64,000 bases of DNA from Candidatus Bathyarchaeia archaeon (lineage in GTDB: Archaea; Thermoproteota; Bathyarchaeia; Bathyarchaeales; Bathycorpusculaceae), in assembly GCA_049520955.1 (NCBI GenBank), contig JBEKPG010000005.1, positions 2,817 through 66,816 of the forward strand, given 5' to 3'. Of the stretch, positions 15,036 to 43,760 are shown one piece after another. The translations under genes and the position numbers were made by a program. Position 1 is the stretch's first letter. The number at the start of each line of letters is the position of its first letter. The notes under the pieces were generated by a model. It ran no database searches. It was not told the origin of the DNA and saw only the letters and a list, made by a program, of their open reading frames with translations.

Positions 15036-15260
15036 TTCCTTCTGAATTACTTGTTACCTATAAACATTGTCAAAATGCAACGATGGAAGCTCTTTCAGGG
15101 TATTTCTTAAGTAGATGATTTTGAACTACAAGGCTTACTTCTAGAATTCTTTTTTCAAGCTGATTTTCATGTTTGGGAAATTCTGAGAAAATCTTAATCA
15201 GAAAAATGCTTATGCCAAATATTTAATTACCTTTGCAGCTTAATTAGAATAGGTGTTTGA

Positions 15261-18855: not shown

Positions 18856-19545
18856 ATGATCTGCAATCTGTTCGTCTTTAGACACGCAGATACTACAGAC
18901 AATAGCAACGGCATATTCTCGGGTTGGCGTGACCCTGACTTGACCCTAAAAGGTCTTTTGCAGGCGCAAGATGTTGCTAAACAGCTAGAGCAAGAAAAAA
19001 TTGATTATGCATTTACCTCGCACCTTTTGAGAGCCAAAAGAACCCTTGAAATTGTCCTTAAACCGCACCTCAACGTTCCTATTTTCATGGACGACCGCCT
19101 GATTGAACGGTGCTATGGTACGTTGCAGGGCAAAAGCAAAGTCAAGCTTGCAGCCGAAAAACCCGAGTGGTTTACCAAAGTTCACCGCGGCTACGATTTT
19201 GCGCCTCCTAAAGGTGAAAGCCTAATGATGGTTGAAAGCCGCACTTTGCCTTTTGTTGTGCAGCTTGAAAGGTGGTTTCAACACAATCCTGGTAATGTAG
19301 CTATCTCATGTCATGGCAACTCAATGCGCCCGATTAGGAGAATTTTTGAGCAATTAAGCCTTGAGCAGATGCTTCAACTTGAGAATCCGCAGGACCAAGC
19401 GATGAAATATGCTCTTCAAATACACCGTATCAAAGTTGACGGAACTGAAGAAAACAGAATCGAAAAGCATTGGCAAAGCATTGTTGTCCCCTCTTCCGTA
19501 AAGTTGGCAACGGATCCACGAAACCCCCTGAAACAATACTATTAG
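18856..19545 (+). CDS. gpmA: Histidine-phosphatase family, 2,3-BPG-dependent phosphoglycerate mutase-like
   Basis: FRHADTTDN...IFSGWRDPDLT, LIERCYGTLQG, SCHGNSMR; directly downstream of pyk. Confidence 0.8.
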   Translation: MICNLFVFRHADTTDNSNGIFSGWRDPDLTLKGLLQAQDVAKQLEQEKIDYAFTSHLLRAKRTLEIVLKPHLNVPIFMDDRLIERCYGTLQGKSKVKLAAEKPEWFTKVHRGYDFAPPKGESLMMVESRTLPFVVQLERWFQHNPGNVAISCHGNSMRPIRRIFEQLSLEQMLQLENPQDQAMKYALQIHRIKVDGTEENRIEKHWQSIVVPSSVKLATDPRNPLKQYY

Positions 19546-19598
19546 GTTCAATCAAGGTTTTCTGGATATCCTTGATTCGCATTGGTTTTGACTATTGC

Positions 19599-30725: not shown

Positions 30726-30812
30726 TGGCGCGGGATGTGGGATTTGAACCCACGCGGCCTTTCGACCACAGACTTAGCAGGCCTGCCCCCTACCAGGCTA
30801 GGGCAATCCCGC
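30726..30812 (-). tRNA. tRNA-Ser(GCT), CCA encoded, no intron
   Basis: Acceptor GCGGGAT/ATCCCGC, discriminator G + CCA, anticodon loop CT-GCT-AA, long variable arm, T-arm GTGGG-TTCAAAT-CCCAC. Confidence 0.95.
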
Positions 30813-30813
30813 A
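30790..30813. repeat. Direct repeat copy 1 (att-like; 5' end of tRNA-Ser)
   Basis: CTACCAGGCTAGGGCAATCCCGCA, identical to 43503-43526. Confidence 0.92.
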
Positions 30814-31339
30814 ATTGTACCCTAACTCATTATTTTCGCTTTTGTCTATCTTAGCTTTGATCTCAATAACCAATGCTGGTTAGTAGAGTTATTGAATTGG
30901 GTTATTTTTGTCTTTTGCGTCTAATGATACACACAGCTGCAGTTAGTAGAAGAATCACGATTTAAGCGCGCGTGTCTCATTTTTCCATGTTGGTTTTTTC
31001 TTAAATCTGCTGGATACACTGGGCAAAAAAGCTTAAAAATCTCTCATTTTACCAAAATAAGTGTTTTTTAGCCTTTTTAACCTATATAAAGCCAAACTAC
31101 ATAGGCACTTTTGAAACTAAAAATAATTCCTAGTTTTTTATTCTGTTATGTTGGGCTTTAAAACTTTGGCTTTAAGCAATGTTAACACCAAAACGACCAA
31201 CACATTATTACAACATTAACTAAGCGGTTTAACTAGTCTTTTTGGTGGTTCTAACAGGGTATTTTAATAAAAACAGCTAGGGGTTTAGTTAAAAAATAGG
31301 TCGGCTAAATTAAAGCTGTTATATGTCAAGGGGTAGAGG

Positions 31340-31483
31340 TTATTTTTGGCTTAATTCGTTATGCCATTTATCACAGCAATGGTTTATGAATCTAGGAATC
31401 ATGTCATTTGTAAGTTTGCATACGCAATAAGAAGCGTTATACTCTGAGCACGTTCCGCAACCACACTTAGCGCATCTATCCAT
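31340..31483 (-). CDS. Cys-rich microprotein (47 aa, 8 Cys)
   Basis: Hand translation MDRCAKCGCGTCSEYNASYCVCKLTNDMIPRFINHCCDKWHNELSQK. Confidence 0.5.
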   Translation of the reverse strand: MDRCAKCGCGTCSEYNASYCVCKLTNDMIPRFINHCCDKWHNELSQK

Positions 31484-31489
31484 TTTTAA

Positions 31490-31585
31490 TCAGAATCCCT
31501 GATGTTGGCAGTCTGTGCCAATGTGGTCGCATTCGTAGGTACCTAATTGAAAGTGGCTGCATCGCCTAAATTTTTTGCAAGTCAT
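31490..31585 (-). CDS. Cys/His-rich micropeptide (31 aa)
   Basis: Hand translation MTCKKFRRCSHFQLGTYECDHIGTDCQHQGF; GAGGAG upstream; in tandem with the 47-aa ORF. Confidence 0.4.
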   Translation of the reverse strand: MTCKKFRRCSHFQLGTYECDHIGTDCQHQGF

Positions 31586-31789
31586 AGTTATTTTGCCATC
31601 TCCTCAACCTTGACAAAGCGTTTTGGCGATTATATGCAATGTTCCGATTCTTGACACATATCAACCTTCAAACAACATTAGCACCTAATTATTTTAATAA
31701 AAAAAAGCCGCTAGAGTGGTTGTCCACGTGGAAGAGGCATGTCTAACACTCTAACGACTGCCACAAGGTTGAGGCTGTGACTGTCAAAT

Positions 31790-32326
31790 TTAGACGCAAA
31801 CTCCAAAACTTTCAATATTGCCATTGGTTGCATTGGTTTCAACTTTGCCGAAAATCAGGCGTGTACCTGTTGTTTTTACGATTGCTGTCGCTTGTTCTGC
31901 CGTAATTTTTTCTATTTTGCCAATTTGCTTGCATGTGTAATTTTCATTACTCTGATTTAAAGCCACAAAACAGCAAACCCCACCACCAGCACAGTTAAAA
32001 TCACGAATAAACAGTTTTCCATCGCTTTCAATAAACCATAAATTATCAGTGACATCTGGACGCATAGTATAACTTAAGACCATGTGGAACCATATTTTTT
32101 CGATTGAATTCCATGCGTTTTTGTCTTCGACATCTTTACTAAAAAGTATGTGGGCTATAGCTGACCTTTTAAAATTCATCTCTTCAGGGGTTTTAAGTAC
32201 CGTTGACTCTTCATTAAAGGCACTCCAACTTTTTAGAGACTTATCGAAGCGTGACACAAAGGTTTTTTCTTCAAATCTGTAGCCTTCAGGTTTATGCATC
32301 CACCGAGCGCGCGCGCTTTCTTTCAA
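31790..32326 (-). CDS. Hypothetical protein; 5' end lies on a (GC)5 junction
   Basis: 178-aa ORF; 'SARAR' near the N-terminus is the translated GCGCGCGCGC run, so it may be truncated or chimeric. Confidence 0.5.
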   Translation of the reverse strand: MKESARARWMHKPEGYRFEEKTFVSRFDKSLKSWSAFNEESTVLKTPEEMNFKRSAIAHILFSKDVEDKNAWNSIEKIWFHMVLSYTMRPDVTDNLWFIESDGKLFIRDFNCAGGGVCCFVALNQSNENYTCKQIGKIEKITAEQATAIVKTTGTRLIFGKVETNATNGNIESFGVCV

Positions 32327-32424
32327 CTTTTAGAAGTAAATATTTGACGCTGATTCATGTTGGTGAAGTCTTTGGGTTTGCCGTCTCTAAGTGCGGCAAA
32401 AACGCGTTCATCAAATAAGCCCAT
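32323..32424 (-). pseudogene. N-terminal fragment of a winged-helix protein
   Basis: MGLFDERVFAALRDGKPKDFT then stops after 33 aa; resembles the first helix of a wHTH family (from recall). Confidence 0.35.
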
Positions 32425-32599
32425 TGCGAGTTATAATAAGCAAAATCAGACTTGTAACCATTTTTAACCATTTTCGGGACAAGCCAGCGCGCTGAAATTG
32501 CCGCGCTACAGTATATAGACATTCAGATACGTTTATTTCTGAAATGGTGGCTAAAATACATCAGTAGCTTAAAAGAAACTCACATGGCGATGTTTTTTC

Positions 32600-33355
32600 A
32601 TGAGTAAAGAGCCGTCTGCCTCAGAACCAATGCTTGGCGCTCGGGCTTATCACTTCCTTGAGATGCGTCGATTATTCTCAGAAGGGTTAGGAACTTTCTT
32701 TCTTGTTTTAGTAGCTGTTGGAGGAGGTGTTGTAAATACTGCAACACACGGAGCCATTAGCCAAGTTGCCCTTGTTATTGCGCCTGCTTTAATGGTTATG
32801 GCAATCATTCTTTTTATGGGAAAGGTTTCTGGGGCTCATCTAAATCCTGCAGTAACGATTGCTTTTTCTGCTCGAGGCGATTTCCCTTGGCGCCGAGCCC
32901 CTGGATACATCTTAGCTCAAATTATAGGCGCTGTTATAGCATGTTCTTTTCTTGCCACCATATTTGGTGTGAATGGAACTTTTGGTTCCACTCAACCAGG
33001 AGCTGGCTTTAGTGGTTTGCAAGCAGTCTTGATAGAGTTCATTCTTACTCTTGGACTTGTCAGCGTAATTCTCGGAACCGCTTCTAAAGCTCAAAACGTC
33101 GGACCGTTGTCTGCCCTTGCAGTTGGCGGCTATATTGCGTTGGCTGGACTTTGGGCAGCGCCCATATCTGGAGCATCAATGAACCCAGCGCGCTCATTTG
33201 CCCCTGACCTTTTTCTTCTTAGCTTTAGTACCTATTGGATATATTTAGCAGGGCCTATAGCAGGTGCATTGCTTGCTGTGTTTTTTGCTTATCTTCTGCG
33301 TGGACATAACAGGGACGAAACAGCGATTGAGGCCGCACAAGGTGTCCTAAAATAA
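32600..33355 (+). CDS. Aquaporin / MIP channel
   Basis: Two NPA motifs: SGAHLNPAVT and GASMNPARS; 6 TM. Confidence 0.95.
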   Translation: MSKEPSASEPMLGARAYHFLEMRRLFSEGLGTFFLVLVAVGGGVVNTATHGAISQVALVIAPALMVMAIILFMGKVSGAHLNPAVTIAFSARGDFPWRRAPGYILAQIIGAVIACSFLATIFGVNGTFGSTQPGAGFSGLQAVLIEFILTLGLVSVILGTASKAQNVGPLSALAVGGYIALAGLWAAPISGASMNPARSFAPDLFLLSFSTYWIYLAGPIAGALLAVFFAYLLRGHNRDETAIEAAQGVLK

Positions 33356-33423
33356 CCGACCCATTGGAGGCTAACTATTGTCACATGAATTGATAAGGGT
33401 GAACAAAAAAGGAGGTCTAAAAA

Positions 33424-34837
33424 ATTACCGAACCTATACAGCCAAATAGAGGTCTTAGTCGTCAGGAGCGTTGGCAAAAAGGGAAAGAACTAAGTGTCAA
33501 GATTCCATGGAAGAGCCACAGTGAGTGGAAACGTCCAAGTAATTTTCAAGACCCCATCAGCCTAATTCAACAGCATGACAAAGGGCGATTATCGTTTTTG
33601 CTGCCTATTAAATATGGGCGCATGGCAGCTTCAGCTTTTGCTTATCTTAGGGGTTCAGCCGCGGTCATGGCAGCCGACCTTAGAAGTACTCCAGTCACTG
33701 GCATAAAGACAATGTTGTGCGGCGACGCTCACTTATACAACTTCGGCATCTTTGCGTCGCCCGAGCGCAAACTAGTCTTTGACATAACTGATTTTGATGA
33801 ATGTTACCCTGGTCCGTGGGGAATGGGACCTCAAACGATTGGCCGCCAGTGCAGTCATTGCGGGGAGAGAAAACGGGTTTAAACCTGAAGATAATCGTGA
33901 ACTAGCCAAGCATGTTGCCAAAAAGTATCGTAAGGCAATAACAACATTTGCGAGCATGCTTACTTTAGACGTGTGGTATTCCTATGTAGATGCTGAGAGG
34001 CTCTTGAAAGCATTTCATAATTCTAAAAAAGAGTCGAAAATTTTGGAAAAAGCCATCAAGAAGGCTCGTACTAGAACAGAGGAACAATCACTTGAGAAGT
34101 ACACCGAAATTGTAGATGGTCAGCGACAATTTGTTAATCATCCACCGTTGATGGTTCGTTTAACCGACGTTCCTGAGAGTAATGCTGTGGCAGAGAAAGC
34201 CCAAGTGTTAAGAAATGATCTGGAAAAAGCCTGGCTTGAGTATGTCAGCAGTGTTGAAATAAATCGTCGCGTGTTGCTGGGTCGTTATCATCTTGTTGAT
34301 ACTGCTTTAAGAGTTGTCGGAGTGGGCAGTGTGGGAACTCGTTGCTTCGTAGCTTTGCTGGAAGCTAACTCAATTGATGATGAAATTGTGCTGCAGCAAA
34401 AGGAGGCTGGACCTTCGGTATTGGAACGATACTTAACGCAACGAGAATTTGTCAATCATGCAGATCGTGTGGTGATAGGAGAGCGGTTAATGCAGTCGAC
34501 AAGCGATATCTTTTTGGGATGGAGTTGTGGTTTTGCTTCTTCCGGACGTGATTATTATTGGCGCCAGCTGAGAGATATGAAAGGTTCCGTTGATGTTTCT
34601 CTGTTGGGCGTGAAAGGTTTTAAGGATTATCTTGCGTGCTGCAGCTATTGTTTGGCGCTGGGTCATGCTCGTTCGGGAGATGTTGCTGGGATTTCAGGGT
34701 ATCTGGATAATGGCAAACCATTTGACGAGGCGATTGCAAACTTTAGCGTTTCCTACGCAGAACAAACGGAGCACGATTATCACGCTCTGGTGGCTGCAAT
34801 CAAGGCTGGTCGTATTGTTGCTAAGAAAGGCGTTTGA
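33424..34837 (+). pseudogene. DUF2252-family protein, split by a +1 frameshift and lacking a canonical start
   Basis: KYGRMAASAFAYLRGSAAVMAADL, CGDAHLYNFG, RVVGVGSVGTRC, YWRQLRDMKGS; extra G in run 33818-33821 breaks PWEWDLKRL; frame open from ATT 33424 after GGAGGT. Could be a sequencing error. Confidence 0.8.
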
Positions 34838-35286
34838 TTAAGGTCAACAGTTATCTTAGTCCCTAGCTGTCACCGGCGATTCAAAGAAACGAGTTGATGT
34901 CCATCGTTACCTGTTCAATCTCTATGTAGAATAGTCTGTATGTTTTTTGTATTTACGACTTTTGATCTAAATGCTTCCTTAATTAGCGTTCATAGATAAT
35001 AGATATTTTTTAATTTGAAGCTATATTTTTGCGCCAAATTTTGGTCGAGTGCTATCGAAAGCGAACAAATCTTTCTTGCTTCTTACAGTCCTTCATATTC
35101 GAAAAGGTAACTTTTTCTTATCTATAGTTCAAGCTCTTCTCCTGACTATTGAGGAGGAAAATGTACTTAAGTACTGCCAATGTAGGAACGATAGCAGAGG
35201 ATAATCAAAACGCGGCACGCTATTTATAGTTGTTACATTTTAAGACAGTAGAAAAAGTTAAATCCCTCAATATTCCTCAGTGAATT

Positions 35287-35898
35287 ATGAATTCTACAAC
35301 TCTTATCGAAACAGGATTTACCGAATGGTTCCCGCTGAAAACGTTAACATTCTCAAATTTGCCTCCAAACAAAGACTGCGTCATCATAATAGTGGATAAG
35401 GAACTTTCAGGAAAGCCAGAATCTGATATTCTATATATTGGACGCACAAAAAGATCCGTCAAAAGGATACTGGGCGGATATTTGGCAGGGTATGGCGGAA
35501 AAAAGACAAAGAAGATCAACCAGATGCTTTTCGACGAAGGTTACATTGAAAATGCCGCTATAAGCTGGATCCTAACTGACAAACCAAGAATCATGCAAAA
35601 AGAATTGCTCGCCAAATTCAAAGAAGCTAATGGTAAATTTCCAGTCTGGAACGCCAAAAAGAAACTCAATGTTAAGCCCAAAAAAACCCCAGTTCCCAAA
35701 CCAAAAGCCGCTGCTCCGAGAGTTAAAGTCAGACCGATAACAAAATCCGTTCCGCGCGCGCGCCCAAAAATTGTTTCAACAAAGAGACCTGCGGCAAAGA
35801 CTAAAACCTCAACTAAAACCGAGACAGCAAGCAAAGGGGAAACTGCCGTAGAAACGCCAGAAAAGGCAAAACTTTCAGACACTGAAATGGCAACTTAA
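35287..35898 (+). CDS. GIY-YIG-like domain with Lys/Pro/Ala-rich tail
   Basis: ILYIGRT..R...LLAKF...G.FPVWN followed by a KKTPVPKPKAAAPRVK... basic tail. Confidence 0.6.
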   Translation: MNSTTLIETGFTEWFPLKTLTFSNLPPNKDCVIIIVDKELSGKPESDILYIGRTKRSVKRILGGYLAGYGGKKTKKINQMLFDEGYIENAAISWILTDKPRIMQKELLAKFKEANGKFPVWNAKKKLNVKPKKTPVPKPKAAAPRVKVRPITKSVPRARPKIVSTKRPAAKTKTSTKTETASKGETAVETPEKAKLSDTEMAT

Positions 35899-36267
35899 AA
35901 CTACAGATTTCAGCCAACTTCTTTCTCTCCCTTTTCCTTTGAGTAGTGAACCTCATGTTTTTTACAAGAGACTTTTTTTTCGAACAACACTATCCTTATT
36001 TTGTTGTTGGTTAGTAATTATAAATCAATCTTGGTGGATTTTTCCTTAGAGGGTTTATCCTAATTGTTCGACTTTTGATTGATGGAGTAGCTATTATTAG
36101 TCAGCGTGACCTATTCTCAATGAGGTTGTTTCAGATGTCGATGGATTCAGAAGATTTTAAGGTGCTGCCGCTCTCTTTAAGGCAATGGCTTGTTGTTTGT
36201 TGGTGGGGAATAGCAGTCACACATGTTTAATAAAATCGCAGAGGCACTAGTCTGTTAGTGAAATTTT

Positions 36268-36432
36268 ATGAGTGGAGAAGAAGTTAAAGGTAAACTTAAA
36301 AAGGATGAAGGCAAGATTCGCGTAGGCGCGGGTAAAATTACTGGCAACACAGGTCAAATAATTAAGGGCGAAGCTGAGAAAGTAAAAGGGAAAATCGAAG
36401 AAGACGTAGGCAAAGCCAAAAGAAAGCTCTAA
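36268..36432 (+). CDS. CsbD-family general stress protein (54 aa, absent from ORF track)
   Basis: Hand translation MSGEEVKGKLKKDEGKIRVGAGKITGNTGQIIKGEAEKVKGKIEEDVGKAKRKL. Confidence 0.8.
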   Translation: MSGEEVKGKLKKDEGKIRVGAGKITGNTGQIIKGEAEKVKGKIEEDVGKAKRKL

Positions 36433-36738
36433 CAAAACACCAGCTGTTCAACGCCTCCATAATAAGCCGAAATAAGTTTTCAAGAAAACGGAAAATACCA
36501 CAGCAACTATTAAGCGGATAGTTTGCTCTTTTTTTCCATCTAACGCCAATCTGAGCTTATCAGAAACTATACTGTGAATACAACGCCGCCGAACGCACGC
36601 GCGCAAAAGTTCGGAAGAGGTAAAGGTAGCGGTGTAAGGACAGGGATGGGTCATTATGGTGGGAAGTTACTGTTGAACCATGTTGACAAAAAAGCTGGAG
36701 AATCAACAACTATTGAATAAATTAGGGCGTTTTGAGTT

Positions 36739-36978
36739 TTACATTATCTTCTTGGGGGTTTGATGCTCAGTTTCCAAGTGCATGGTTAATTCCTCTTTAG
36801 TTTTGAAAACTTTACCACATATTTGGCAAGTAACCTTGTTTGGCGTTGGATTATCCATTGGAGGAAGCGAAGGCTGCTGATCTGGGGATTCAAAAGAGCC
36901 ATCTGGTGGGGAGGGTGCAATCAAATCATTGAATGATTCATTTGGCTTCTTTTCGTAGGGAAAATCAGGCTCAGTCAA
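36739..36978 (-). CDS. Small C2H2 zinc-finger protein
   Basis: CQICGKVFKTKEELTMHLETEH (C-x2-C-x12-H-x4-H) after a Pro-rich N-terminus. Confidence 0.8.
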   Translation of the reverse strand: MTEPDFPYEKKPNESFNDLIAPSPPDGSFESPDQQPSLPPMDNPTPNKVTCQICGKVFKTKEELTMHLETEHQTPKKIM

Positions 36979-37668
36979 AATCTTACCTATATTACAAGGG
37001 GTTTATGCTTTTCTTAAGCATTTGTGACTGTCTAACGACAATAACGTAAAAGTAGGTCACAGTTAAGCAAACAGTTTACTCGTTTCTTTCTCTCATTTTT
37101 TTACGAGAGTTTTCTTACAATGTAAGTTGAGCCTTTCTTCTCTCTGTCGTGCTCACGACTGCGTACGCTCGCGAATGCACGCACGCCCACGCATGCCTCC
37201 GTGAATCGTGTCTGTCCTACTGTCAGTCACTCTGTCAGTCTCACAGTCGCACCCGCAACAAAACAAAAACAAACAGATAGGGTAAGCTAAAGATTCGTTC
37301 GAATCTTTCTTTCAGCTTGCCTTATATCAAGTTAAAAAGAAATCTCAAAACAACGATAAGAACTATTATTAATACTACTACTACAATAGCGGACCAGAGC
37401 CAACTACCTAAACCACCTTTTTTATTATGCAAAAACCTCATTTGTCCAATCACCTCTTGTATAACTGACTTATTGTCTTTCAATTCTACTTAACTATTTG
37501 TTACTGTAGAACCACAACTACAAGCGCTCGCTCCAAATACTATTCAGATTGGTGTTATGCGGAAGTGCGCAAGCTAGTTTTCAGCGCGCGCGTGACCGTT
37601 TCCATTCCTCTGTGAGGATACCATGGAAACCCTTTGATATAATCCTTAGGATTATCTGATCCAAAGTG

Positions 37669-37857
37669 GCACATCAACAATCGCCTAGCAGCCGCAACAG
37701 TGGCGATTTTCTTACCCCTCTTCTCCGCTATCCGATTATACGCTTTCGTAATAGCGGTATCGTACTTGTGAGCATGCGTCTGAGCCGCCTCAACCATCAC
37801 CCAACGCAGCCACCTGCTACCTTCCTTAGTGATGCTTCCATGCCAAACAGTCTTTCC
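37669..37857 (-). pseudogene. IS110-family transposase C-terminal fragment
   Basis: GKTVWHGSITKEGSRWLRWVMVEAAQTH...RGKKIATVAAARRLL; starts exactly at the (GC)n run 37857-37866. Confidence 0.8.
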
Positions 37858-37943
37858 GCGCGCGCGAAGGCTTATTAGCTTCCGCTTTCGAATCTGAAGA
37901 AGCTTTTTATTTTAGCCTAAACTATTTTTTAATAGGTCTCGGT

Positions 37944-38840
37944 TTGAATCTTGGTACCCACATCTTTTTTGCTGGTGTAGTCACAGCTATTCTCACGGGC
38001 AACCCTTACTTCACTCTTTTAGCGGGAATAGGCAGTTTCATCCCCGACCTGGATCGAGAATACCTCTTGGTGAGCCCAAAGGCTTTTCGAGAGGAACAGT
38101 TTCATCGGGCGCTTTTCCATAACCTGCTTTTTCTATCTGGGCTGTTTTTTGTGAATGTTTGGCTTGCACTAGGCGCATTTCTACATAGCTTCATAGATTC
38201 CTTCACTACAGAGAAAGACAAGGGAGTCGAGTGGCTTTTTCCATTTTCTAGAATGGTGAAACGTGGTCGTTACACGTTGGCTGCAAAGTCAAAAGACGGA
38301 GCGTGTAAACTGGAGTTGGTTGATCAGAAGCCGCCTGATCGAGTCTGCTTTATCAATGAAGATTCTCCGGAGACAACCCAGCTTTCTGATCCTGATTTGA
38401 AGGAGTCAAGAGCTGTTCCATGGCGTAGGACCTATGGACCTGCGACGAACGGGCAAATGTTCGACAAGTGGCTCGCATTAGCCTCTTTTTCGATGCTAAT
38501 TCTTTATGCTGTGTTGAACCCTGGTTTTGCAATGGCTGGCAAAAACCTCATCCTCTCAACCCAAATCATTCCGCCAATGAGCCTTTTAACGGGCATCGTA
38601 CTGGTTTTTCTCGGAGGTTGGCTTAAAAAGAACAAAAGAAACAGAAAAGGGTACCTCACCCTCTTCGCGGCTGGTGGTGTGTTCACAGTTTTGTCAGCTG
38701 TACTGTCGGTTGGCGGAGTTTCGGGTTATGTGTTTCTTTTAAGTCCTACTTTTATTGCTGTCGGCTGCTTGGTTTTGTTTGCTGAAGCGCTTTTTATTTG
38801 GCGGCTTAGCACATACGGCGGAAAAAAAGCCCTAGTTTAA
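37944..38840 (+). CDS. Membrane metal-dependent hydrolase (YdjM-like)
   Basis: TH, GSFIPDLD, HRALFHNL, GAFLHSFIDSFT, GVEWLFPF; C-terminal TM helices. Confidence 0.85.
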   Translation: MNLGTHIFFAGVVTAILTGNPYFTLLAGIGSFIPDLDREYLLVSPKAFREEQFHRALFHNLLFLSGLFFVNVWLALGAFLHSFIDSFTTEKDKGVEWLFPFSRMVKRGRYTLAAKSKDGACKLELVDQKPPDRVCFINEDSPETTQLSDPDLKESRAVPWRRTYGPATNGQMFDKWLALASFSMLILYAVLNPGFAMAGKNLILSTQIIPPMSLLTGIVLVFLGGWLKKNKRNRKGYLTLFAAGGVFTVLSAVLSVGGVSGYVFLLSPTFIAVGCLVLFAEALFIWRLSTYGGKKALV

Positions 38841-39099
38841 GTAAGAAGCGCGCGCTTCAGGTGAAAACAAAATTCGTTTGTGACGCGTTTCAAAGCATGG
38901 AATCTGAATGAAAACAGAAAATAGGCTAAAGAATCAAAAGGCGAATTATTGCAACCTTTGACCAATTTAGGAACACCCACGCGCGCTACCTTTCAAAAAG
39001 ATCTCAAATGATCCCTACGATGTCCTACAAAGAACACCATCAACATTACTTAATGGCTAGACGTACTATCGTCTGACTCTCTCGCGATTAAATTGGTCT

Positions 39100-39297
39100 C
39101 TATTTTTTCTCTTGCTTTATTTTTTCCCTTAACTGATTGATAGACGTAACACGTTGCTCTTTAAGGACCGCCTCAACTGTTTTATCGGAACGATAACCAA
39201 AATGTTCCTGAATATCAGGAGCAACATTTCCTATATGTGCATCTTCACGAATTTGTCTAGGATCCCCTGTCTTGCCTATTTGTCCTGGCATTTTCAA
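39100..39297 (-). CDS. Small hypothetical protein
   Basis: 65-aa charged ORF downstream of and co-oriented with the TPS/TPP gene. Confidence 0.5.
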   Translation of the reverse strand: MKMPGQIGKTGDPRQIREDAHIGNVAPDIQEHFGYRSDKTVEAVLKEQRVTSINQLREKIKQEKK

Positions 39298-39447
39298 AAC
39301 TCCTTAAAGTAACTATAAACCAACAATTGTTACATAACCTTTTCTCTCATTTGTTCTCGGGTGCGCCACCAGATTCCATCCCTGAGGCTACAGTGTTAGC
39401 GGCAAGTACTGTTCCATCAGGTTTAGTTAAAAGTGGCGCTTTAGTGC

Positions 39448-41652
39448 TTATTGTTTACGGCAGGTTTTCTCGTTTTCAATGCAGTTCCATAGTAATGGTA
39501 AAACTTCTTTTTGTGAGAAAAGACTGTATCGTGCTTTGCTTGGAGTTACTCCCACTTTGATTGAGTATGCTTCTTTGGGAAGTGCAACAAAGAGGTCTTC
39601 GTCGGTTTTGTCGTCTCCAATTGCAAGAATGAAAGTGTATTGTTGTTTTGAAAGCCAATTCTGTGCTGCTCGTCCTTTATTAACTATAGAGCTTTTGATT
39701 TCGATTACTTTGTTTCCATCCATTACTTCAAGGTTAAGGTTTGAAATTGAAGATAGAATATTATCTTTGAGTTCTTTAGCGCGTAAAGAACCAAGGGTAG
39801 GTTCGGTTGCACGGTAATGCCAAGCTAAAGAGAAATCTTTCTCTTCCACGAAACTGCCAGGTGTTCGGTCAGCGTACATCTCAAGAATTGGAAGAATTTC
39901 TTTTTTCCATGCGTCTGAAAGTTGTTCAAGAGCTTTCCAGTCTCCTGAACCTTCTTTAATCCATGCACCATGCTCTGCGACTAATCCAACTTTTAGGGAT
40001 CTGAACCACTCGTCAAACGTTTTTTTGTCCCTGCCGCTGATAAGTACAACTTCATTAGAAGATGATTTACTAAGCTTCCTTAGCATTTTTGCTACATCGT
40101 CTGTAGGTACTGCTTTTTGCGGTTTAGTAGCGAAAGGCACTAATGTACCGTCATAATCAAGTAGAATTAGCCTTCTTTTGCTATTACTGTAGCTTTCGAC
40201 AAGTTCCGTTCGATTAGCTGATGTCATAACTTGTTGATAACTTTCTTGTTGTTTGACATAAGCGTCATTCAAGCGGTTGAGAAAATCGTCTGCCCACCGT
40301 TTAACATTATAACGTGACAATCGTTTTTGCATAATACGATTTCGTTTTATTTGTTCGTCTATAGGCATAGCAAGCGCTGTCTCCAACGCTTCAATTATGT
40401 CTTCTTGATCGTTGGGGTTAACGATAATTGCCTCTCCAAGCTCTTGCGCCGCACCTGTCATTTCCGAAAGAATTAATGCTCCTAAACCATTGATTTTAGT
40501 TGCTATGAACTCTTTGGCCATAAGGTTCATGCCATCGCGTAATGGTGTCACTAAACCAACGTCGGCAACTCCATACAGGGCTACTAATGTTTCAAAAGGA
40601 AGGAATCTTGAGAAATAGCTAACTGGCGTCCAATCTGTGGTGCCATATTTTCCGTTTATTCGACCTACTAATTCATCAATTTGTTTCTTCAATGTTTGGT
40701 ATTGACTTACGTTAATCCGTGAAGGAACTGCGACCAATATGAAGGAGACTTTTCCACGATATTCTGGTTTTCTCTCAATCAGGGCGTCGAAGGCTTCGAG
40801 TCGAAGTGGGATTCCTTTAGTATAGTCGAGGCGGTCAAAAGAAAGAATTATTTTTCGCTTTCCAATCTTTCGTAAAGTGTGTGCCATCTCTTTTTGAACA
40901 AGCGGGTTGTTGCCTGCATCTGAAAATCGTTGATAATCGATACCCATTGGAAAGATGTCAACTTTTGTTTGCCTTGATCCTATTTGAATTTCTCCAAGGT
41001 AATTTTCGTTTCCTAAAATGCGACGGACACATGAAAGAAAATGAAAAACATAATCGTAAGTGTGGAAACCAATTAGGTTTGCGCCAAGTAAGCCTTCAAG
41101 TATTTCTTCTCGCCAAGGAAGAAGTCTAAAAATTTCATGCGATGGAAAAGGGATATGATGGAAATATCCTATCTTAGCATCAGGTAAATGTTCCCGTATC
41201 ATTTGTGGAAGCAGCATCAGTTGATAATCATGAATCCAAATAGTGTCATTAGATTTAGCGACCTTAATTATTTCGTCACAAAATTTTTGGTTGACTTTTT
41301 GGTAAGTCTCCCAATTTTTAAGTTCATATGTTGCATAGAGGTTAAAATAATGAAATAATGGCCATATAGTATTATTGGAGAAGCCTTCATAATAGTATTT
41401 TATTTCATACGGTGTGAGAAAAACTGGATGATACTTTTCATTGCTTAATAAATCAACAATTTGTTTTCTCTCTTCCACCTGCTTTTGATTAAGGTAGATT
41501 CCGGGCCAACCAATCCAAAGGCTGTTACCTAATTTATGAATAGAATTAACACCTGTTGCCAATCCTCCTGTGGTAGGTTGAATTTGAAGTGTAGAATTCT
41601 TTTTAGATATTTGAATCGGTAACCTATTTGAAACAAGTAAAATTCTATCCAT
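39448..41652 (-). CDS. tpsp: Bifunctional trehalose-6-phosphate synthase/phosphatase (OtsA-OtsB fusion)
   Basis: GT20 motifs GGLATG, WIHDYQL, HIPFP, DRLDYTKGI, DGMNL; HAD motifs DYDGTL, SGR, GDDKTDED. Confidence 0.95.
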   Translation of the reverse strand: MDRILLVSNRLPIQISKKNSTLQIQPTTGGLATGVNSIHKLGNSLWIGWPGIYLNQKQVEERKQIVDLLSNEKYHPVFLTPYEIKYYYEGFSNNTIWPLFHYFNLYATYELKNWETYQKVNQKFCDEIIKVAKSNDTIWIHDYQLMLLPQMIREHLPDAKIGYFHHIPFPSHEIFRLLPWREEILEGLLGANLIGFHTYDYVFHFLSCVRRILGNENYLGEIQIGSRQTKVDIFPMGIDYQRFSDAGNNPLVQKEMAHTLRKIGKRKIILSFDRLDYTKGIPLRLEAFDALIERKPEYRGKVSFILVAVPSRINVSQYQTLKKQIDELVGRINGKYGTTDWTPVSYFSRFLPFETLVALYGVADVGLVTPLRDGMNLMAKEFIATKINGLGALILSEMTGAAQELGEAIIVNPNDQEDIIEALETALAMPIDEQIKRNRIMQKRLSRYNVKRWADDFLNRLNDAYVKQQESYQQVMTSANRTELVESYSNSKRRLILLDYDGTLVPFATKPQKAVPTDDVAKMLRKLSKSSSNEVVLISGRDKKTFDEWFRSLKVGLVAEHGAWIKEGSGDWKALEQLSDAWKKEILPILEMYADRTPGSFVEEKDFSLAWHYRATEPTLGSLRAKELKDNILSSISNLNLEVMDGNKVIEIKSSIVNKGRAAQNWLSKQQYTFILAIGDDKTDEDLFVALPKEAYSIKVGVTPSKARYSLFSQKEVLPLLWNCIENEKTCRKQ

Positions 41653-41868
41653 AAAAAATTCGGCTCGGAATGATCATAATAGTGAATCCTCTTGAATAAG
41701 TTTAATGGCTAACTTCATTAGAATGCTTTGTGGTTTTGGGGATTAAAACTTAGCGCGCATGACTGTTCCGAAATTGGTCTAAAATGGTTAAAACTCTCCT
41801 TTTGCAAAAAGAGTTTAAGGGTGAAGTGCTCTTGGCCGTGTTTTTTGGATGGGAAACCGCTGATTTTT

Positions 41869-42120
41869 GCGCACGCGAAACGCTTCAAGGTTAAGGGCGA
41901 TCCGAGGCTGGTGAAGCTATATAGGCTGAGAATGGCTCTTGAAAGAAACTTCAAGGCTGGGAAGCTGGAGCTTATGATGGAGAACCTGCGTTGGAGAGGA
42001 GTAGCTAAGGTGTGGATGCACGCGGTCCTATGCTTCGCGTGCATATACGCCGTGGCAATCACAGCCTACAAAATAGGCAGACCAGAACTAGCCAACAGCA
42101 TCGCAACGTTCACATATTAA
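41869..42120 (+). pseudogene. DDE transposase (IS4/IS5-like) C-terminal fragment
   Basis: LYRLRMALERNF (Y-x2-R-x3-E-R) followed by LRWRGVAKV..HA.L; no N-terminus; bracketed by GCGCGC at 41753 and 42179. Confidence 0.65.
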
Positions 42121-42342
42121 ACGCTGAAAAAGACTCCATTTGCGAAATTAAGCCAAGAAAGAATTAATGACCACTTATGCGCGCCTTATCTGAGATCTTG
42201 CATTTTAAGGAATTAATAAGCTACTTTTCTTTCTTAAGTTGATTAGGACTAATTTCACCCTGGTAATTTAGCCTCTCTTGCATTGACGGAACTGCTCATT
42301 TAGTGGATGGTAACTAGCTCTTGTGGAGAGATCAGCTTCTTT

Positions 42343-42441
42343 CTAAGAAGGGTTGTACCATTCCCAGAGTTCATCAACAGTTTTCTGGGAGCACCCAGAG
42401 TTGACGAGTAATGTCTTGAAATGAATCTTTTCTTTGCTCAT
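42343..42441 (-). CDS. Micro-ORF (32 aa), possibly truncated by a TAG
   Basis: Hand translation MSKEKIHFKTLLVNSGCSQKTVDELWEWYNPS. Confidence 0.3.
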   Translation of the reverse strand: MSKEKIHFKTLLVNSGCSQKTVDELWEWYNPS

Positions 42442-42894
42442 ATGTTACACCTGTTAAAATCTGTAATATTAATATACAATAATCGCAGAATTAAGTATGT
42501 GTGACTGTGAGTCCACAGCAACATTCTGATAGTTGTGTCTGCGCTAATCTGTTCTCAGCATTAATTTACAAGAGAAAAACTAAAAAGAAATAATAGAACT
42601 CAATTAGTTCCTTATTTTTCTAATTTATATTTCTAAAATTATTAAAAATCTTAGAAACCACTTCTTTTATTTTGTTTTGTTTGAAGAGAAAAGGAAAGCC
42701 ATAGTTAACAAGGAGTAGACTGGGGGAAAGTGTTCCCCTTATCCTTGTGAGAAGCTCTCCTTTCTCCTCAAATAAGGAAGTCACCCTCTAAGGCTTAAAA
42801 AGTATATTTCAGAATTGGGATTATGTCAGAAAATCTATTCTTAGATTAATTTTGGCTTAACTTTTAAGTGCTAACTATGCAAATAAGTTACTTC

Positions 42895-43172
42895 GCGCGC
42901 ATACCACCTCTCCAAACTTGAAAGAAGCGGGACTGCTAAAAAAAGAGAACGGCAACTATGTCATCAACAAAGTAATTTTGACAGACTGCATAAAAGTCAA
43001 CCGCTTTCTCATTCGCACGCGCGCTTCGGTTTTACTTCTTATAACAGAATTAACTGTACTAAGACCGCCTCTTGTGACTAGCTTTTACTTCTTTGCCACC
43101 GTTGGTACTTTCATTTGCGCCCTTGCCTTCAGCTATGAGACCGCAAAAGTATGGAGCAAAGGCGGATTTTAA
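42895..43172 (+). pseudogene. Fragment of a wHTH + TM protein
   Basis: AYHLSKLE / EAGLLKKENGNY (frameshifted wing) then two hydrophobic helices; begins at GCGCGC 42895 and has an internal GCGCGC at 43019. Confidence 0.55.
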
Positions 43173-43502
43173 GATCGATTAGTCTTCTCCGCTCTCCGCG
43201 TCATCCTGTTCCTGAAGTTAAATGTTTTTCGGCGCGTACGAACAGTTTGGAGATCGATCATAGCTTCTATGTTGCAAATCTGTCATAAGGACGAACCTTC
43301 CGAGTAGATCAATCGGGCAACTCAGTCATAGTCAGCGTGAAACGAATTTGAAGGTTTCATCAAAAGTTTTTTTGAGTTTTCTAACAAATTTTCGTCTCCC
43401 ATAGGAATCAAAGGCGACAGCAAATGGAACAATTCGCCGCGTTCGAAACTGTGAAAATCGTCGTCAATCTTTTGACCGCAGAAGGAATTGTAGCGCGGCG
43501 CG

Positions 43503-43526
43503 CTACCAGGCTAGGGCAATCCCGCA
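43503..43526. repeat. Direct repeat copy 2 (att-like; tRNA-Ser 5' fragment)
   Basis: CTACCAGGCTAGGGCAATCCCGCA, identical to 30790-30813; the tRNA sequence stops after the D-loop GGTAG. Confidence 0.92.
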
Positions 43527-43760
43527 CATGTAACAATGATCATTTTGGAACCTGCCAAAGTCTGGGTTATAGTGTAGAGTGTGGCGCTCGGATATTTTTG
43601 CTTTCTGGATAGCGAAAATGTAAATCACACAATCTAACCTAAAAGATTTTAGAACCCTGATTAAAGTACGACTTTTGCCTCTTATTGTATTACAGTTTGA
43701 ACGAACGATTAGCAGTCTCATTTTAACAATCAGTTTTTGTTTCTTTGAATCAACACGCTT

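Follow-up and report, generated by a model that had tools for sequence, protein, structure and literature searches.

Alternating GC runs in a tRNA-Ser island of a peat Bathyarchaeia archaeon probably mark the ends and leftover scars of one insertion sequence family

What could have placed fifteen short runs of strictly alternating G and C in a single archaeal island? The DNA analysed here, a 64-kb stretch that we call the window, came from a peat-dwelling Bathyarchaeia archaeon and carried an island of 12.7 kb (30814-43502) at a tRNA-Ser gene, between two exact copies of a 24-nt repeat (Table 1). The relatives L105, L109, L112, L113, L149, and L134 had an empty site, where the whole tRNA gene was directly followed by a homolog of 43503-43637 and the PNPOx gene. 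Thus, the island was an insertion. Its GC content was about 0.40-0.44, slightly below that of some flanking stretches. The run at 43498 and the second repeat copy overlapped by one base, the final C of the run and the first base of the copy. A sequence-only reading had described the island as a mosaic of segments, and this was borne out by gene fragments standing out of context. The CsbD-like and zf-C2H2 modules were in swapped order relative to L005, with a 224-nt novel junction (36438-36661) between them, and intact copies of the IS110 fragment ran on beyond 37857 in metagenomes.

We defined a run as a maximal alternating G/C stretch of at least 6 nt. The scan recovered all 15 island loci (6-11 nt) previously picked out by eye, ten of them at least 7 nt long, where six runs of 7-11 nt had been claimed, and five at least 8 nt long. 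The remaining 51 kb of the window had five runs. The earlier count of a single outside locus (29923) was right for GCGCGC and missed four CGCGCG (8528, 50416, 52314, and 59239), at least two of which (50416 and 52314) were coding sequence conserved in orthologs. The sequence-only reading had put the expected island count at about one; it was 1.24 at the rest-of-window rate (P(>=15) = 6e-12) and 0.69 at the clade background of 24 runs in 441 kb (P = 1.6e-15). In the whole window, 23 GCGCGC matches were observed versus 10.8 in dinucleotide-preserving shuffles, and 22 of the 23 were inside the island. Strings of at least 6 nt made of G and C only were equally dense in the island (43) and in the rest of the window (180), and their alternating fraction was higher in the island (Fisher P = 1.5e-8). 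The enrichment was limited to strictly alternating GC.

Such self-complementary repeats might be produced by assembly, amplification or polishing, or the runs might reflect the own oligonucleotide composition of a foreign island. We found nothing in favour of either option, gave practically no credence to them and rejected the artefact proposed earlier. Five independent JGI assemblies had identical run positions and lengths, also in strains that differed by 19-20 mismatches over 2-3 kb, and Logan contigs from independent sequencing runs crossed the GC runs checked (e.g., an X1 contig covering 37361-39797). Since positions and lengths matched in independent metagenome assemblies, the runs were not artefacts. 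Moreover, relatives of single island segments (L001-L011 and L017-L019) lacked them, and therefore they were not inherited composition.

Table 1. Runs, element remnants and boundary features of the island (window coordinates)
Feature	Position	Strand	Context
tRNA-Ser(GCT) gene	30726..30812	-	ARAGORN; Rfam tRNA 54.9 bits; its 5' end is the island start
24-nt direct repeat CTACCAGGCTAGGGCAATCCCGCA, copy 1	30790..30813		tRNA 5' end; left island boundary; exact repeat
GCGCGCG, solo	30966..30972		~1-kb stretch without long ORF or database match; no IS end beside the run
(GC)5, solo	32307..32316		7 nt upstream of ATG of 169-aa minus-strand ORF
Type-A miniature element (MITE-A), terminal 124 nt	32363..32486	-	83% identical to L177 MITE-A 352-481
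GCGCGC	32487..32492		directly adjoins type-A terminal repeat
GCGCGC, coding	33188..33193	+	codons GCG CGC, NPAR (Asn-Pro-Ala-Arg) box of intact MIP/aquaporin gene 32600-33355
Conserved 203-aa gene, out of context here	35287..35898	+	in relatives located in polyphosphate gene cluster
CGCGCGCGCGC, solo	35753..35763		deletion-insertion within continuous homologous sequence
CGCGCGC, solo	36598..36604		inside novel junction
GCGCGCGCG, solo	37584..37592		bounds 3' side of IS110 fragment
IS110-family transposase gene, C-terminal fragment	37593..37856	-	from translation; GC runs on both sides
(CG)5, solo	37857..37866		exact IS110 truncation point
(GC)4, solo	38848..38855		8 nt past stop codon of YdjM-like gene; centre of GAAGCGCGCGCTTC
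Type-A terminal inverted repeat fragment TGGGTGTTCCTAAATTGGTC	38936..38979	-	reads leftward from 38979
CGCGCGC	38980..38986		adjoins type-A terminal repeat
GCGCGC	41753..41758		adjoins type-A left terminal repeat 41759-41805, ATGACTGTTCCGAAATTGGTC
Type-B IS, 3' part: transposase C-terminus and right terminal repeat ...AATTAATGACCACTTAT	41857..42178	+	
GCGCGC	42179..42184		adjoins type-B right end; L110 homology spans the GC run and ends there
CGCGCGC, solo	42894..42900		start of N-terminally truncated winged-helix/transmembrane ORF; end of multi-copy segment
CGCGCGC, solo	43018..43024		within winged-helix/transmembrane ORF, codons ACG CGC GCT
GCGCGC, solo	43498..43503		fused to right copy of tRNA-derived repeat
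24-nt repeat CTACCAGGCTAGGGCAATCCCGCA, copy 2	43503..43526		right island boundary; exact repeat

The 15 island runs fell into three classes: four abutted insertion sequence (IS) ends (32487, 38980, 41753, and 42179), one was a coding motif (33188), and ten were solo. The coding run was part of an intact gene (Pfam MIP, E=7e-49) whose translation reads MNPARSFA at the run, and it was a coincidental motif and no scar. In the first class, the terminal inverted repeat TGGCTTGTCCCGAAAATGG of the MITE-A fragment, a member of the terminal-repeat cluster, read leftward from 32486. This segment was multi-copy in metagenomes (depth 3-5x that of the flanks), and other copies had the type-A repeat and GCGCGC and then diverged at 32493 (loose ends in X2-X4). 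The type-B remnant was 86-88% identical to an intact 1213-bp element in L110, with a weak Pfam DDE_Tnp_1 match; window positions 41876-42184 were 88% identical to the right end of that element, run included, and diverged directly beyond. The type-A repeat at 41759-41805 and the type-B part together made up a chimeric remnant of two elements. The earlier suggestion that runs sit at module boundaries was accordingly supported at both ends of this DDE-transposase remnant, at the IS110 truncation (37857) and in the relative L020, where a breakpoint fell at a GCGCGC of its own. It failed at the junction 36169/36170, which had no run, at the coding motif, and at 35753, which lay inside continuous homologous sequence.

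The elements belonged to an IS family of about 1.1-1.25 kb encoding a DDE transposase of 280-336 aa with DUF772 and DDE_Tnp_1 domains, nearest to IS1182/IS5 and scoring under the NCBIfam cut-offs for both. Each copy examined, from four terminal-repeat subtypes, had (GC)2-4.5 (4-9 nt) on either side, immediately outside a terminal inverted repeat that was itself subtype-specific. The intact L110 element read GCGCGC-ATAAGTGTTCATTAATTG...AATTAATGACCACTTAT-GCGCGCGC. It was present in 20 more contigs with four distinct left and five distinct right flanks, GC runs at all of them, and additional element flanks in Logan contigs had the same pattern. Likewise, the long-read contigs L177 and L179 contained four subtypes (A-D) with unrelated terminal repeats and runs at all. 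Unsupervised clustering of run-adjacent sequence recovered exactly the subtype ends, including the four IS-abutting runs of the window and L020 5694. Run density was 5x higher in the six IS-bearing loci (0.444/kb) than across 882 kb from other Bathyarchaeia loci (0.083/kb), and for runs of at least 8 nt the difference was 18x (0.103/kb versus 0.0057/kb). The tRNA-Ser island was a dumping ground for elements of this family. Its runs mark element ends, and probably also scars left behind, of an IS family in which both ends invariably have alternating GC. The idea that the runs were cores of a relaxed-specificity recombinase came close, since they were an invariable feature of the ends or flanks in a DDE-transposase family.

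The run may belong to the element as its tip, represent a palindromic target that was duplicated, or combine the two. Sequence beside the runs was enriched for TNA/A (11 and 19 of 30), with TGA on both sides in one copy, favouring the tip. On the other hand, a target was favoured by three observations. Copies of the L110 element with identical bodies differed in run length, which was 4, 6, 7 or 9 nt at left flanks and 6 or 8 nt at right flanks. One run was common to two elements in L179 (IS-C|CGCGCGC|IS-B), and in Logan contigs IS-B was connected via one run to ends of IS-C and IS-A. In the sole empty-site comparison for element insertion, a viral contig (L197/L200), the run aligned with GCTGGC/GCGGGC in seven uninterrupted relatives, where 4-5 of 6 positions match GCGCGC. 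These three points, together with palindrome targeting by IS1182 family members (PMC5678879), argue for pre-existing landing pads, in which a (GC)n tract prone to cruciforms or Z-DNA would be the IS target, split or duplicated on insertion, with solo runs being either empty targets or ones restored after excision. We considered this explanation unlikely. It would account for the position of runs next to IS ends but leave their origin unexplained, GCGCGC was under-represented in the clade background (24 in 441 kb vs ~64 expected), and TNA-like flanks stood outside the run at many ends. Moreover, the runs at 35753 and 37857 were new where close homologs had no GC repeat, and therefore something creates runs.

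These two solo runs were the sites at which aligning the flanks to homologs, as the sequence-only reading had proposed, revealed the ancestral sequence. At 35753, comparison with L020 (93.6% identical over 1 kb) and with L017-L019 gave C-AAA-C in the closest relative versus C-GCGCGCGCG-C in the window, with 3 nt lost and 9 gained. The run was absent in the retrieved homologs P0122-P0149 and stayed in frame in the 203-aa gene (Asn to Arg-Ala-Arg). At 37857, intact IS110 copies read ...GTCTTTCC|AGAAGCATGCGTAGAAGG (TTCC|AGAAGC at the breakpoint), and loose ends were present in X2, X3, X4, X5, and X7. By these comparisons, at least two solo runs had arisen de novo, at sites previously free of GC repeats. 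Neither ancestral site had GCGC or CG, which spoke against the proposed cleavage by a GCGC-specific (HinP1I/HhaI-type) enzyme, after which the 5'-CG overhang would be filled in and the blunt ends ligated. Although this chemistry gives palindromic GCGCGC from GCGC and adds one GC per round, it needs an ancestral GCGC, and ordinary GCGC sites outside the island were unexpanded, as the few outside runs indicated. No restriction-modification, Ku/LigD or integrase genes were found within the 64-kb window. We therefore regarded this chemistry as very improbable. The broader idea of cut-and-rejoin scars held in part, the agent being probably a transposase.

The same two runs resembled end-joining scars, as would be expected if the runs were double-strand-break repair filler independent of transposons: after a nuclease cut and resection of a few bases, GC repeats added by a polymerase or primase would anneal and be ligated, and the IS family would exploit them secondarily. 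Consistent with this, four of about 35 solo runs were at the centre of longer palindromes, and one low-depth X3 contig joined 42156 to 43503 with AGCGCGCGCGC between; however, this join was absent in three other sequencing runs. The same sequence was present at every IS-family end examined, run density followed IS presence, and end-joining genes were not seen within the window. Since non-alternating G/C-only strings were not enriched, biased untemplated addition was disfavoured, and we know of no enzyme that adds strictly alternating GC at breaks. Repair filler was thus a decidedly doubtful source of the runs.

We favoured, with moderate confidence, the explanation that the runs represent the signature of a single IS family active in peat Bathyarchaeia, solo runs being what remains after element loss. 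Since alternating GC matches itself as a direct repeat and equally as an inverted one, end runs can pair in either orientation. Pairing between the end runs on the two sides of a single element, or between those of separate elements, followed by replication slippage or microhomology-mediated joining, would delete everything between and leave one run; the ten solo runs would be such leftovers once the element body was lost. New elements may land by preference at existing runs, as the common runs and the near-GCGCGC empty site suggest, and runs would thereby build up locally. Repeated and nested insertion with run-to-run deletion would then yield a mosaic in which (GC)n lies between the gene fragments. 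It would also yield truncated ends capped by a run on the inner side, as at 32363-32486, where (GC)5 at 32307 capped the truncated side of the type-A fragment, and at 38936-38979, where (GC)4 at 38848 capped a 124-nt stretch ending in the type-A end fragment. Both previously noted palindromes, AGCGCGCGCGCT (32306-17) and GAAGCGCGCGCTTC (38845-58), were present at these caps. The 169-aa ORF beside (GC)5 matched an L012 gene call (9191-9700). TCA and TGA flanked the run at 37584 and thus formed a palindrome. At 42894, an alternative allele departed at 42890, and 12 nt beyond that point it had a GCGCGC of its own.

Against an IS origin, recognisable IS sequence was touched by only 4 of the 15 island runs, and for the ten solo runs it was co-occurrence that pointed to it; elements could also home to runs that arise in another way. 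We found no locus where one strain had the element and another had a solo run in its place, and no target-site duplications flanking solo runs. The loss of AAA at 35753 was more than simple end-to-end deletion could produce by itself.

The proposed run-to-run deletion follows the logic of the host-mediated "precise excision" of inverted-repeat transposons. As for the insertion step, a precedent is IS1272, a member of the IS1182 family, which inserts at palindromes without duplicating the target and with deletion of target sequence (PMC5678879).

The alternating G/C tracts of at least 6 nt (hereafter runs) were concentrated in a 12.7-kb island located at a tRNA-Ser gene (window 30814-43502). 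The flanks of the island carried archaeal housekeeping genes (GatD/E, RIO kinase, ELP3, PyrI, NrdD, TyrRS, pyruvate:ferredoxin oxidoreductase, and others), and the nearest database records were Candidatus Bathyarchaeia MAGs from peat. An exact 24-nt direct repeat connected the 5' end of the tRNA (30790-30813) with 43503-43526. In at least six relatives (L105, L109, L112, L113, L134, and L149), the complete tRNA directly adjoined a homolog of 43503-43637 followed by a pyridoxamine-phosphate-oxidase-like gene (window 44282). Therefore, the 12.7 kb between the repeats represented an insertion, and these relatives had the empty site. With its tRNA-Ser site, tRNA-derived direct repeat, and empty site in relatives, the island was similar to tRNA-linked genomic islands. 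However, it differed from them in three respects. The repeat spanned the 5' tRNA end, the genes present were pseudogenes and out-of-context chromosomal genes, and an integrase, whole or fragmentary, was detected neither as a Pfam match in the ten longest ORFs nor by eye among the 72 ORFs of at least 40 aa. An integron or cassette array was ruled out since the integrase was not found and the boundaries were 6-11-nt simple repeats without a common flanking structure. A contig search with the neighboring DUF6855 gene returned paralogs or orthologs without synteny, which were used as background.

Features of the island and terminal repeats of the insertion sequence subtypes (positions are those of the window unless a locus is named)
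Feature	Position	Strand	Remark
tRNA-Ser(GCT)	30726-30812	minus	left edge of island
Type-A miniature element, last 124 nt	32363-32486		BLAST of full elements against the window
Aquaporin gene	island		intact
DUF2252 gene	33598-34837		frameshift splits it into overlapping ORFs 33598-33882 and 33794-34837
Conserved 203-aa gene	35287-35898		polyphosphate-cluster gene in relatives; ~95 nt of PPK2 neighbor left here
CsbD-like/zf-C2H2 gene pair	36193-37051		order swapped relative to L005 1712-2419
IS110 fragment	island		out-of-context piece
YdjM-like membrane hydrolase gene	island
Type-A end	38936-38979		BLAST of full elements against the window
Trehalose-phosphate synthase/phosphatase gene	island		usual TreT neighbor missing
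DDE-transposase remnant	island
Chimera of type-A left end and 3' third of type-B element	41753-42184		BLAST of full elements
Winged-helix/transmembrane ORF	island		truncated
Type A terminal repeat			TGGCTTGTCCCGAAATTGG
Type B terminal repeat			ATAAGTGTTCATTAATT
Type C terminal repeat			GGTAAGTTAAATAATTATTT
Type D terminal repeat			CAGCCCGTTGCTAAATTA

The ~1 kb beside the tRNA (30814-31790) had a longest ORF of at most 47 aa, no Rfam match, and no homolog among the loci compared. In the DUF2252 gene, a Logan contig from sequencing run X4 was one base short at 33818 (depth 5 of 38.6), and there may be a population allele with the other reading frame, possibly intact. The CsbD-like and zf-C2H2 genes were convergent in the window and divergent in the related locus L005, an arrangement resembling tandem duplication followed by deletion. 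Additionally, each arm of a 22-nt inverted repeat (36214-36235 and 37009-37030) corresponded to one half of the divergent promoter region in L005. The interval from the zf-C2H2 gene to the IS110 fragment contained a low-complexity, ACGC/GTC-rich segment (37130-37260) overlapping a palindrome at 37148-37181. The relatives of the trehalose-phosphate synthase/phosphatase gene (L001-L011, ~90% nucleotide identity) were too divergent outside the gene for placing breakpoints. Finally, the segment 42480-42890 had 3-10x the depth of its flanks in several sequencing runs and showed alternative continuations at 42485, 42524, 42533, 42772, and 42890. It was probably a further multi-copy miniature element ending beside the run at 42894, and its alternative allele continued as TTGTGATTGAAG-GCGCGC-TTCTCTC.

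The conserved 203-aa gene belonged to a family of ~200 aa with 213 homologs, a tail rich in lysine and proline, and a GIY-YIG-like motif of weak score (Pfam E=0.048); its members included the genes at L017 10001-10606, L018 10001-10600, and L020 5976-6476. In relatives, these genes were always located beside PPK2 in a polyphosphate cluster (CHAD, PPK1, Ppx), and this uncharacterised family may be linked to polyphosphate metabolism. As a candidate nuclease making the runs, this ORF was rejected on account of its being a conserved chromosomal gene of the polyphosphate cluster in relatives, and the gene was thus a passenger in the island.

Scanning the whole 64 kb identified 20 maximal alternating runs, 15 of which were within 30966-43503. 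All 15 island GCGCGC loci from the sequence-only reading were recovered exactly at their places; ten of these runs were at least 7 nt long and five had 8-11 nt. The same reading had reported a single GCGCGC (29923) outside of the island, which was correct, but it had not counted four CGCGCG runs (8528, 50416, 52314, and 59239). At least two of the outside runs (50416 and 52314) were conserved coding sequence in orthologs. The run density of the window outside of the island gave an expectation of 1.24 runs for the island (P = 6e-12), and that of 441 kb from related Bathyarchaeia loci (L023-L044, L063, and L064) gave 0.69 (P = 1.6e-15). Moreover, shuffling the whole window with its dinucleotides preserved yielded 10.8 GCGCGC matches, whereas the actual sequence had 23, of which 22 were inside the island. 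The excess was confined to strictly alternating tracts, as G/C-only strings of at least 6 nt had the same density within the island and outside of it. A general GC-rich or foreign composition was ruled out since strict alternation alone was enriched and the homologs of island segments had no runs. A HIP1-like genome-wide palindrome was also ruled out: GCGATCGC was absent and no other palindrome was enriched. Apart from the ends of insertion sequences, we did not find a motif that flanked all runs in common.

Other simple repeats were surveyed as well. The (CT)n/(AG)n-type alternations of at least 6 nt were somewhat enriched in the island (10 (CT)n versus 7 outside), which probably reflected its large non-coding and pseudogene-rich share. 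The 441-kb background contained 24 alternating GC hexamers where base composition predicted ~64. This deficit could stem from depletion of CpG, from avoidance of restriction, or from selection against landing sites of insertion sequences. A GCGCGC-N5/6-GCGCGC motif (GCGCGCAAAGTGGCGCGC and its complement) was conserved in two Bathyarchaeia MAGs (L021 8030-8047 and L022 493-509), where it looked like an operator with no relation to the ends of insertion sequences.

The sequence-only reading had named an amplification or assembly artefact as the main alternative. It was ruled out since the same runs were present in independent JGI and Logan assemblies. Namely, the JGI contigs from five samples (L012-L016) covered the island wholly or partly and had runs of the same positions and lengths as the window, even in strains with 19-20 differing positions in 2-3 kb, ~99% identical strains included. 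In independent peat sequencing runs, Logan contigs crossed every run checked, and no indels at runs were listed among the Logan contigs of X1-X4. Because run lengths were constant between strains, a hypervariable dinucleotide microsatellite (contingency locus) was ruled out too.

Comparison with related loci showed that the runs were a constant end or flank feature of a family of ~1.2-kb insertion sequences. An intact 1213-bp element in the related locus L110 started with GCGCGC-ATAAGTGTTCATTAATTG, encoded a 336-aa transposase, and ended with AATTAATGACCACTTAT-GCGCGCGC; its 34-nt termini were 91% identical to each other. The right end of this element was 88% identical to window 41876-42184, and the identity continued through the GC run and ended directly after the run in both sequences. 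The transposase, with its DUF772 and DDE_Tnp_1 domains, had 434 close homologs, and PF05598 and PF01609 were annotated in all 120 homologs among the matches listed. Twenty contigs with one such element presented four distinct left flanks and five distinct right flanks, all of which had a GC run beside the terminal repeat. Left-hand runs measured 4, 6, 7, or 9 nt and right-hand runs 6 or 8 nt, although the element bodies were identical. Logan contigs provided further flanks where the GC run was likewise present. Moreover, two long-read loci from a relative (L177 and L179) contained four subtypes (IS-A to IS-D) that had unrelated terminal repeats but were all GC-bracketed, as were two miniature derivatives of ~470 bp. 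Paired inverted-repeat ends were found for each of the subtypes A-D. Unsupervised clustering of the 40 nt beside every run in ten loci recovered the ends of these elements and grouped the window runs at 32487, 38980, and 41753 with type A and the run at 42179 with type B.

Six of the eight reliable copies had no duplication beyond the run. The other two had 3-4-nt repeats outside the runs, namely TGA (L158/L167) and CTTA (window). The latter was discounted as a 4-bp duplication because the window remnant combined one type-A and one type-B end in a chimera. The TNA trinucleotide was over-represented beside runs (11 of 30 flanks). A scan of viral contigs for the type-B end yielded one true copy among 20 chance matches. 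As a side observation, a 21-kb polysaccharide-biosynthesis region of a relative (L179) had four different copies from the family (8605-11076, 14126-15245, and 19042-20141) and 19 GC runs, which suggests surface-glycan loci as a further hotspot of the family. In one metagenome contig (L157 2045-3322), a type-B element was located ~900 bp upstream of a Phage_integrase-family gene, a hint that the elements also ride on integrative elements.

According to the sequence-only reading, the runs joined the segments of a mosaic island and might be scars of repeated nuclease cleavage, for example at G^CGC, followed by fill-in and rejoining, or else cores of a relaxed-specificity recombinase. Not every run fitted the first part. 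The run at 33188 encoded the Asn-Pro-Ala-Arg box of the aquaporin gene and is a coding coincidence that needs no further explanation. The run at 35753 was located within 1 kb that was 93.6% identical to the related locus L020, where C-AAA-C corresponded to C-GCGCGCGCG-C in the window. The change was in frame (Asn to Arg-Ala-Arg) and the run was absent from all other homologs retrieved. Since the homologs were continuous across this position without a run, it was a small deletion-insertion rather than a segment joint, and its ancestral site had no GC repeat. Additionally, the clear rearrangement joint at 36169/36170 had no run. The run at 37857 was located exactly at the truncation of the IS110 fragment, and intact copies from the same metagenomes read ...GTCTTTCC|AGAAGCATGCGTAGAAGG, so that the ancestral sequence (TTCC|AGAAGC) also lacked a GC repeat. 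These comparisons showed that at least two solo runs, i.e., runs without a recognisable element end beside them, arose de novo. As for the second part, fill-in scars need an ancestral GCGC or CG, and the ancestral states at 35753 and 37857 therefore ruled out the GCGC fill-in chemistry. No GCGC-specific restriction-modification system was present within the 64-kb window. The proposed association of the runs with module boundaries and with the cutting and rejoining of DNA stood, while restriction with fill-in was most likely not the agent. Two further junctions involved runs. In L020, the run at its breakpoint against the window abutted a type-A end. A variant joining 42156 to 43503 via a (GC)5 filler appeared in one low-depth contig of sequencing run X3, was not reproduced in X8, X16, or X19, and is only a hint.

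Runs were also more frequent in loci where the family was present. Six loci with true ends of the family had 0.444 runs/kb and, for runs of at least 8 nt, 0.103/kb, versus 0.083 runs/kb and 0.0057/kb in the other 882 kb of Bathyarchaeia loci. Over 21 kb each, L177 had 11 runs and L179 had 19; about half were solo, and some were inside reading frames that were still open. Both truncated type-A ends in the window were located in stretches whose inner side was capped by another run, namely (GC)5 at 32307 and (GC)4 at 38848. We infer that solo runs are what remains after loss of the element body. Since an alternating GC tract repeats itself in both direct and inverted orientation, runs from one or different elements can pair. 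Paired runs might then mediate slippage or microhomology joining, which would delete or invert the intervening DNA and leave one run. A nested insertion with subsequent run-to-run deletion would produce the order of run, truncated end, and run, such as at 32307-32492 and 38848-38986. The same succession of events would likewise account for run-bounded gene fragments like the IS110 piece.

Pre-existing runs were apparently preferred sites for new insertions. In L179, a single CGCGCGC was common to IS-C and IS-B, and in Logan contigs the ends of IS-A and IS-C were joined to IS-B via one run. In the viral contig, the run beside the IS-B end aligned with GCTGGC/GCGGGC in seven uninterrupted relatives. 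The variable length, the runs common to two elements, and the near-GCGCGC match at the empty site favor a run that was a palindromic insertion target, duplicated or split. Conversely, the de novo runs at non-GC sites and the TNA-like bases immediately beyond many runs favor a run that was part of the element end; both may apply. Among the loci compared, we found no series of filled, empty, and scar states at one site.

The most likely agent was this DDE transposase family together with host slippage or repair, and not a restriction enzyme with fill-in. A rather improbable alternative is that the (GC)n ends themselves are functional: they would be cohesive after the transposase cut, the donor would reseal, and the excised element would anneal into targets. 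A solo run would then be a true excision footprint left by the resealed donor. Targets could be GC-like or other sequences, with a few target bases replaced rather than duplicated, and each hop would set the run length anew, for example, by off-centre hairpin opening or a shift in the annealing register. If true, this would be an archaeal cut-and-paste element with built-in donor-site repair and an engine both pruning and shuffling the island.

With the transposase family and host slippage or repair as the agent, the runs would matter in several respects. An alternating GC run of at least 8 nt in a ~42% GC genome is a simple and searchable marker of past transposition or rearrangement junctions in Bathyarchaeia, an abundant and uncultured group whose mobile DNA is little known. 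In annotation, (GC)n clusters should not be taken for restriction-enzyme scars, cloning sites, or assembly errors. Microhomologies that arise from self-complementary transposon ends can later promote deletions and reshuffling within an island. Moreover, some solo runs located in frame in still-open genes added Arg-Ala-Arg, and therefore transposon scars can edit proteins. These findings are of moderate relevance and concern students of transposition and archaeal genome plasticity. The analysis describes an IS1182/IS5-like group with ends always bracketed by one self-complementary repeat of variable length. It may extend the little-studied palindrome-targeting behavior without target duplication reported for IS1272, and the 336-aa transposase with its 34-nt ends offers a tractable system for that mechanism.

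With respect to classification, the best NCBIfam model for all four subtypes was IS1182 (NF033551; 68-148 bits versus a cut-off of 270), and the IS5 models (NF033578-81) were next, with 34-105 bits for the best of them, IS5_4, versus a cut-off of 140. Since these scores were far below the curated cut-offs, the transposases were not filed in IS1182 or IS5. We know of no described group of insertion sequences with a palindrome that is always (GC)n, on both sides, variable in length, and left behind. A literature search on insertion sequences targeting GCGC or on GC-repeat fillers at junctions returned nothing specific, which is weak evidence.

The IS5 family (IS1031, IS427, and IS5 groups) and the related eukaryotic PIF/Harbinger elements share with the present family a size of ~1-1.2 kb and the DDE_Tnp_1 catalytic domain. 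The IS1031, IS427, and IS5 groups and PIF/Harbinger prefer short palindromic or TNA-type targets, and TNA was over-represented beside the runs here. However, the score was 80 versus 140 bits, there was no consistent 2-4-bp duplication, and the eight copies did not show the regular 2-9-bp target-site duplication of IS5 elements. To our knowledge, no described IS5 group has alternating GC of at least 6 nt at its ends. Precise and nearly precise excision of Tn5 and Tn10 is a host-mediated replication slippage between short direct repeats that bracket long inverted repeats. Classically, these direct repeats arise by target duplication, and excision restores the original sequence. The element between short repeats is lost and one copy stays, similar to a solo run with unrelated or contiguous flanks. 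In contrast, the repeat here would be the self-complementary end or flank of the element itself, so that foreign (GC)n would stay. Among the loci compared, no direct excision event was observed. The piggyBac elements perform seamless cut-and-paste transposition at the self-complementary TTAA target, and their likeness to the present family, namely self-complementary sequence at both ends that could give cohesive donor ends, is an analogy only. Their transposase family is unrelated, there was no evidence of a hairpin intermediate here, and the flank length varied.

The closest likeness by domain model was to IS1182 and its staphylococcal member IS1272, for which "stem-loop/IR-replacing transposition" has been described: palindromes are targeted, there is no target duplication, and the target sequence is removed (Wan et al. 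2017, PMC5678879). The present family was unlike IS1182 and IS1272 in its archaeal host, its score (122 versus 270 bits), and its transposase length (280-336 aa versus the 488-position IS1182 model). Moreover, IS1272 uses and removes palindromes of any sequence, whereas the palindrome here was always (GC)n, was kept on both sides of every copy, varied in length, and also occurred alone in large numbers. On the other hand, both had a single DDE transposase with DUF772 and DDE_Tnp_1 domains and terminal inverted repeats. They may also share insertion at palindromic DNA, lack of a regular target-site duplication, and loss of few target bases, which IS1272 achieves by replacing the target palindrome; the empty-site comparison here comprised one case with relatives 71-78% identical at the protein level. 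By analogy, the 3-nt loss at 35753 and the general lack of target duplications would fit the IS1272 style of transposition.
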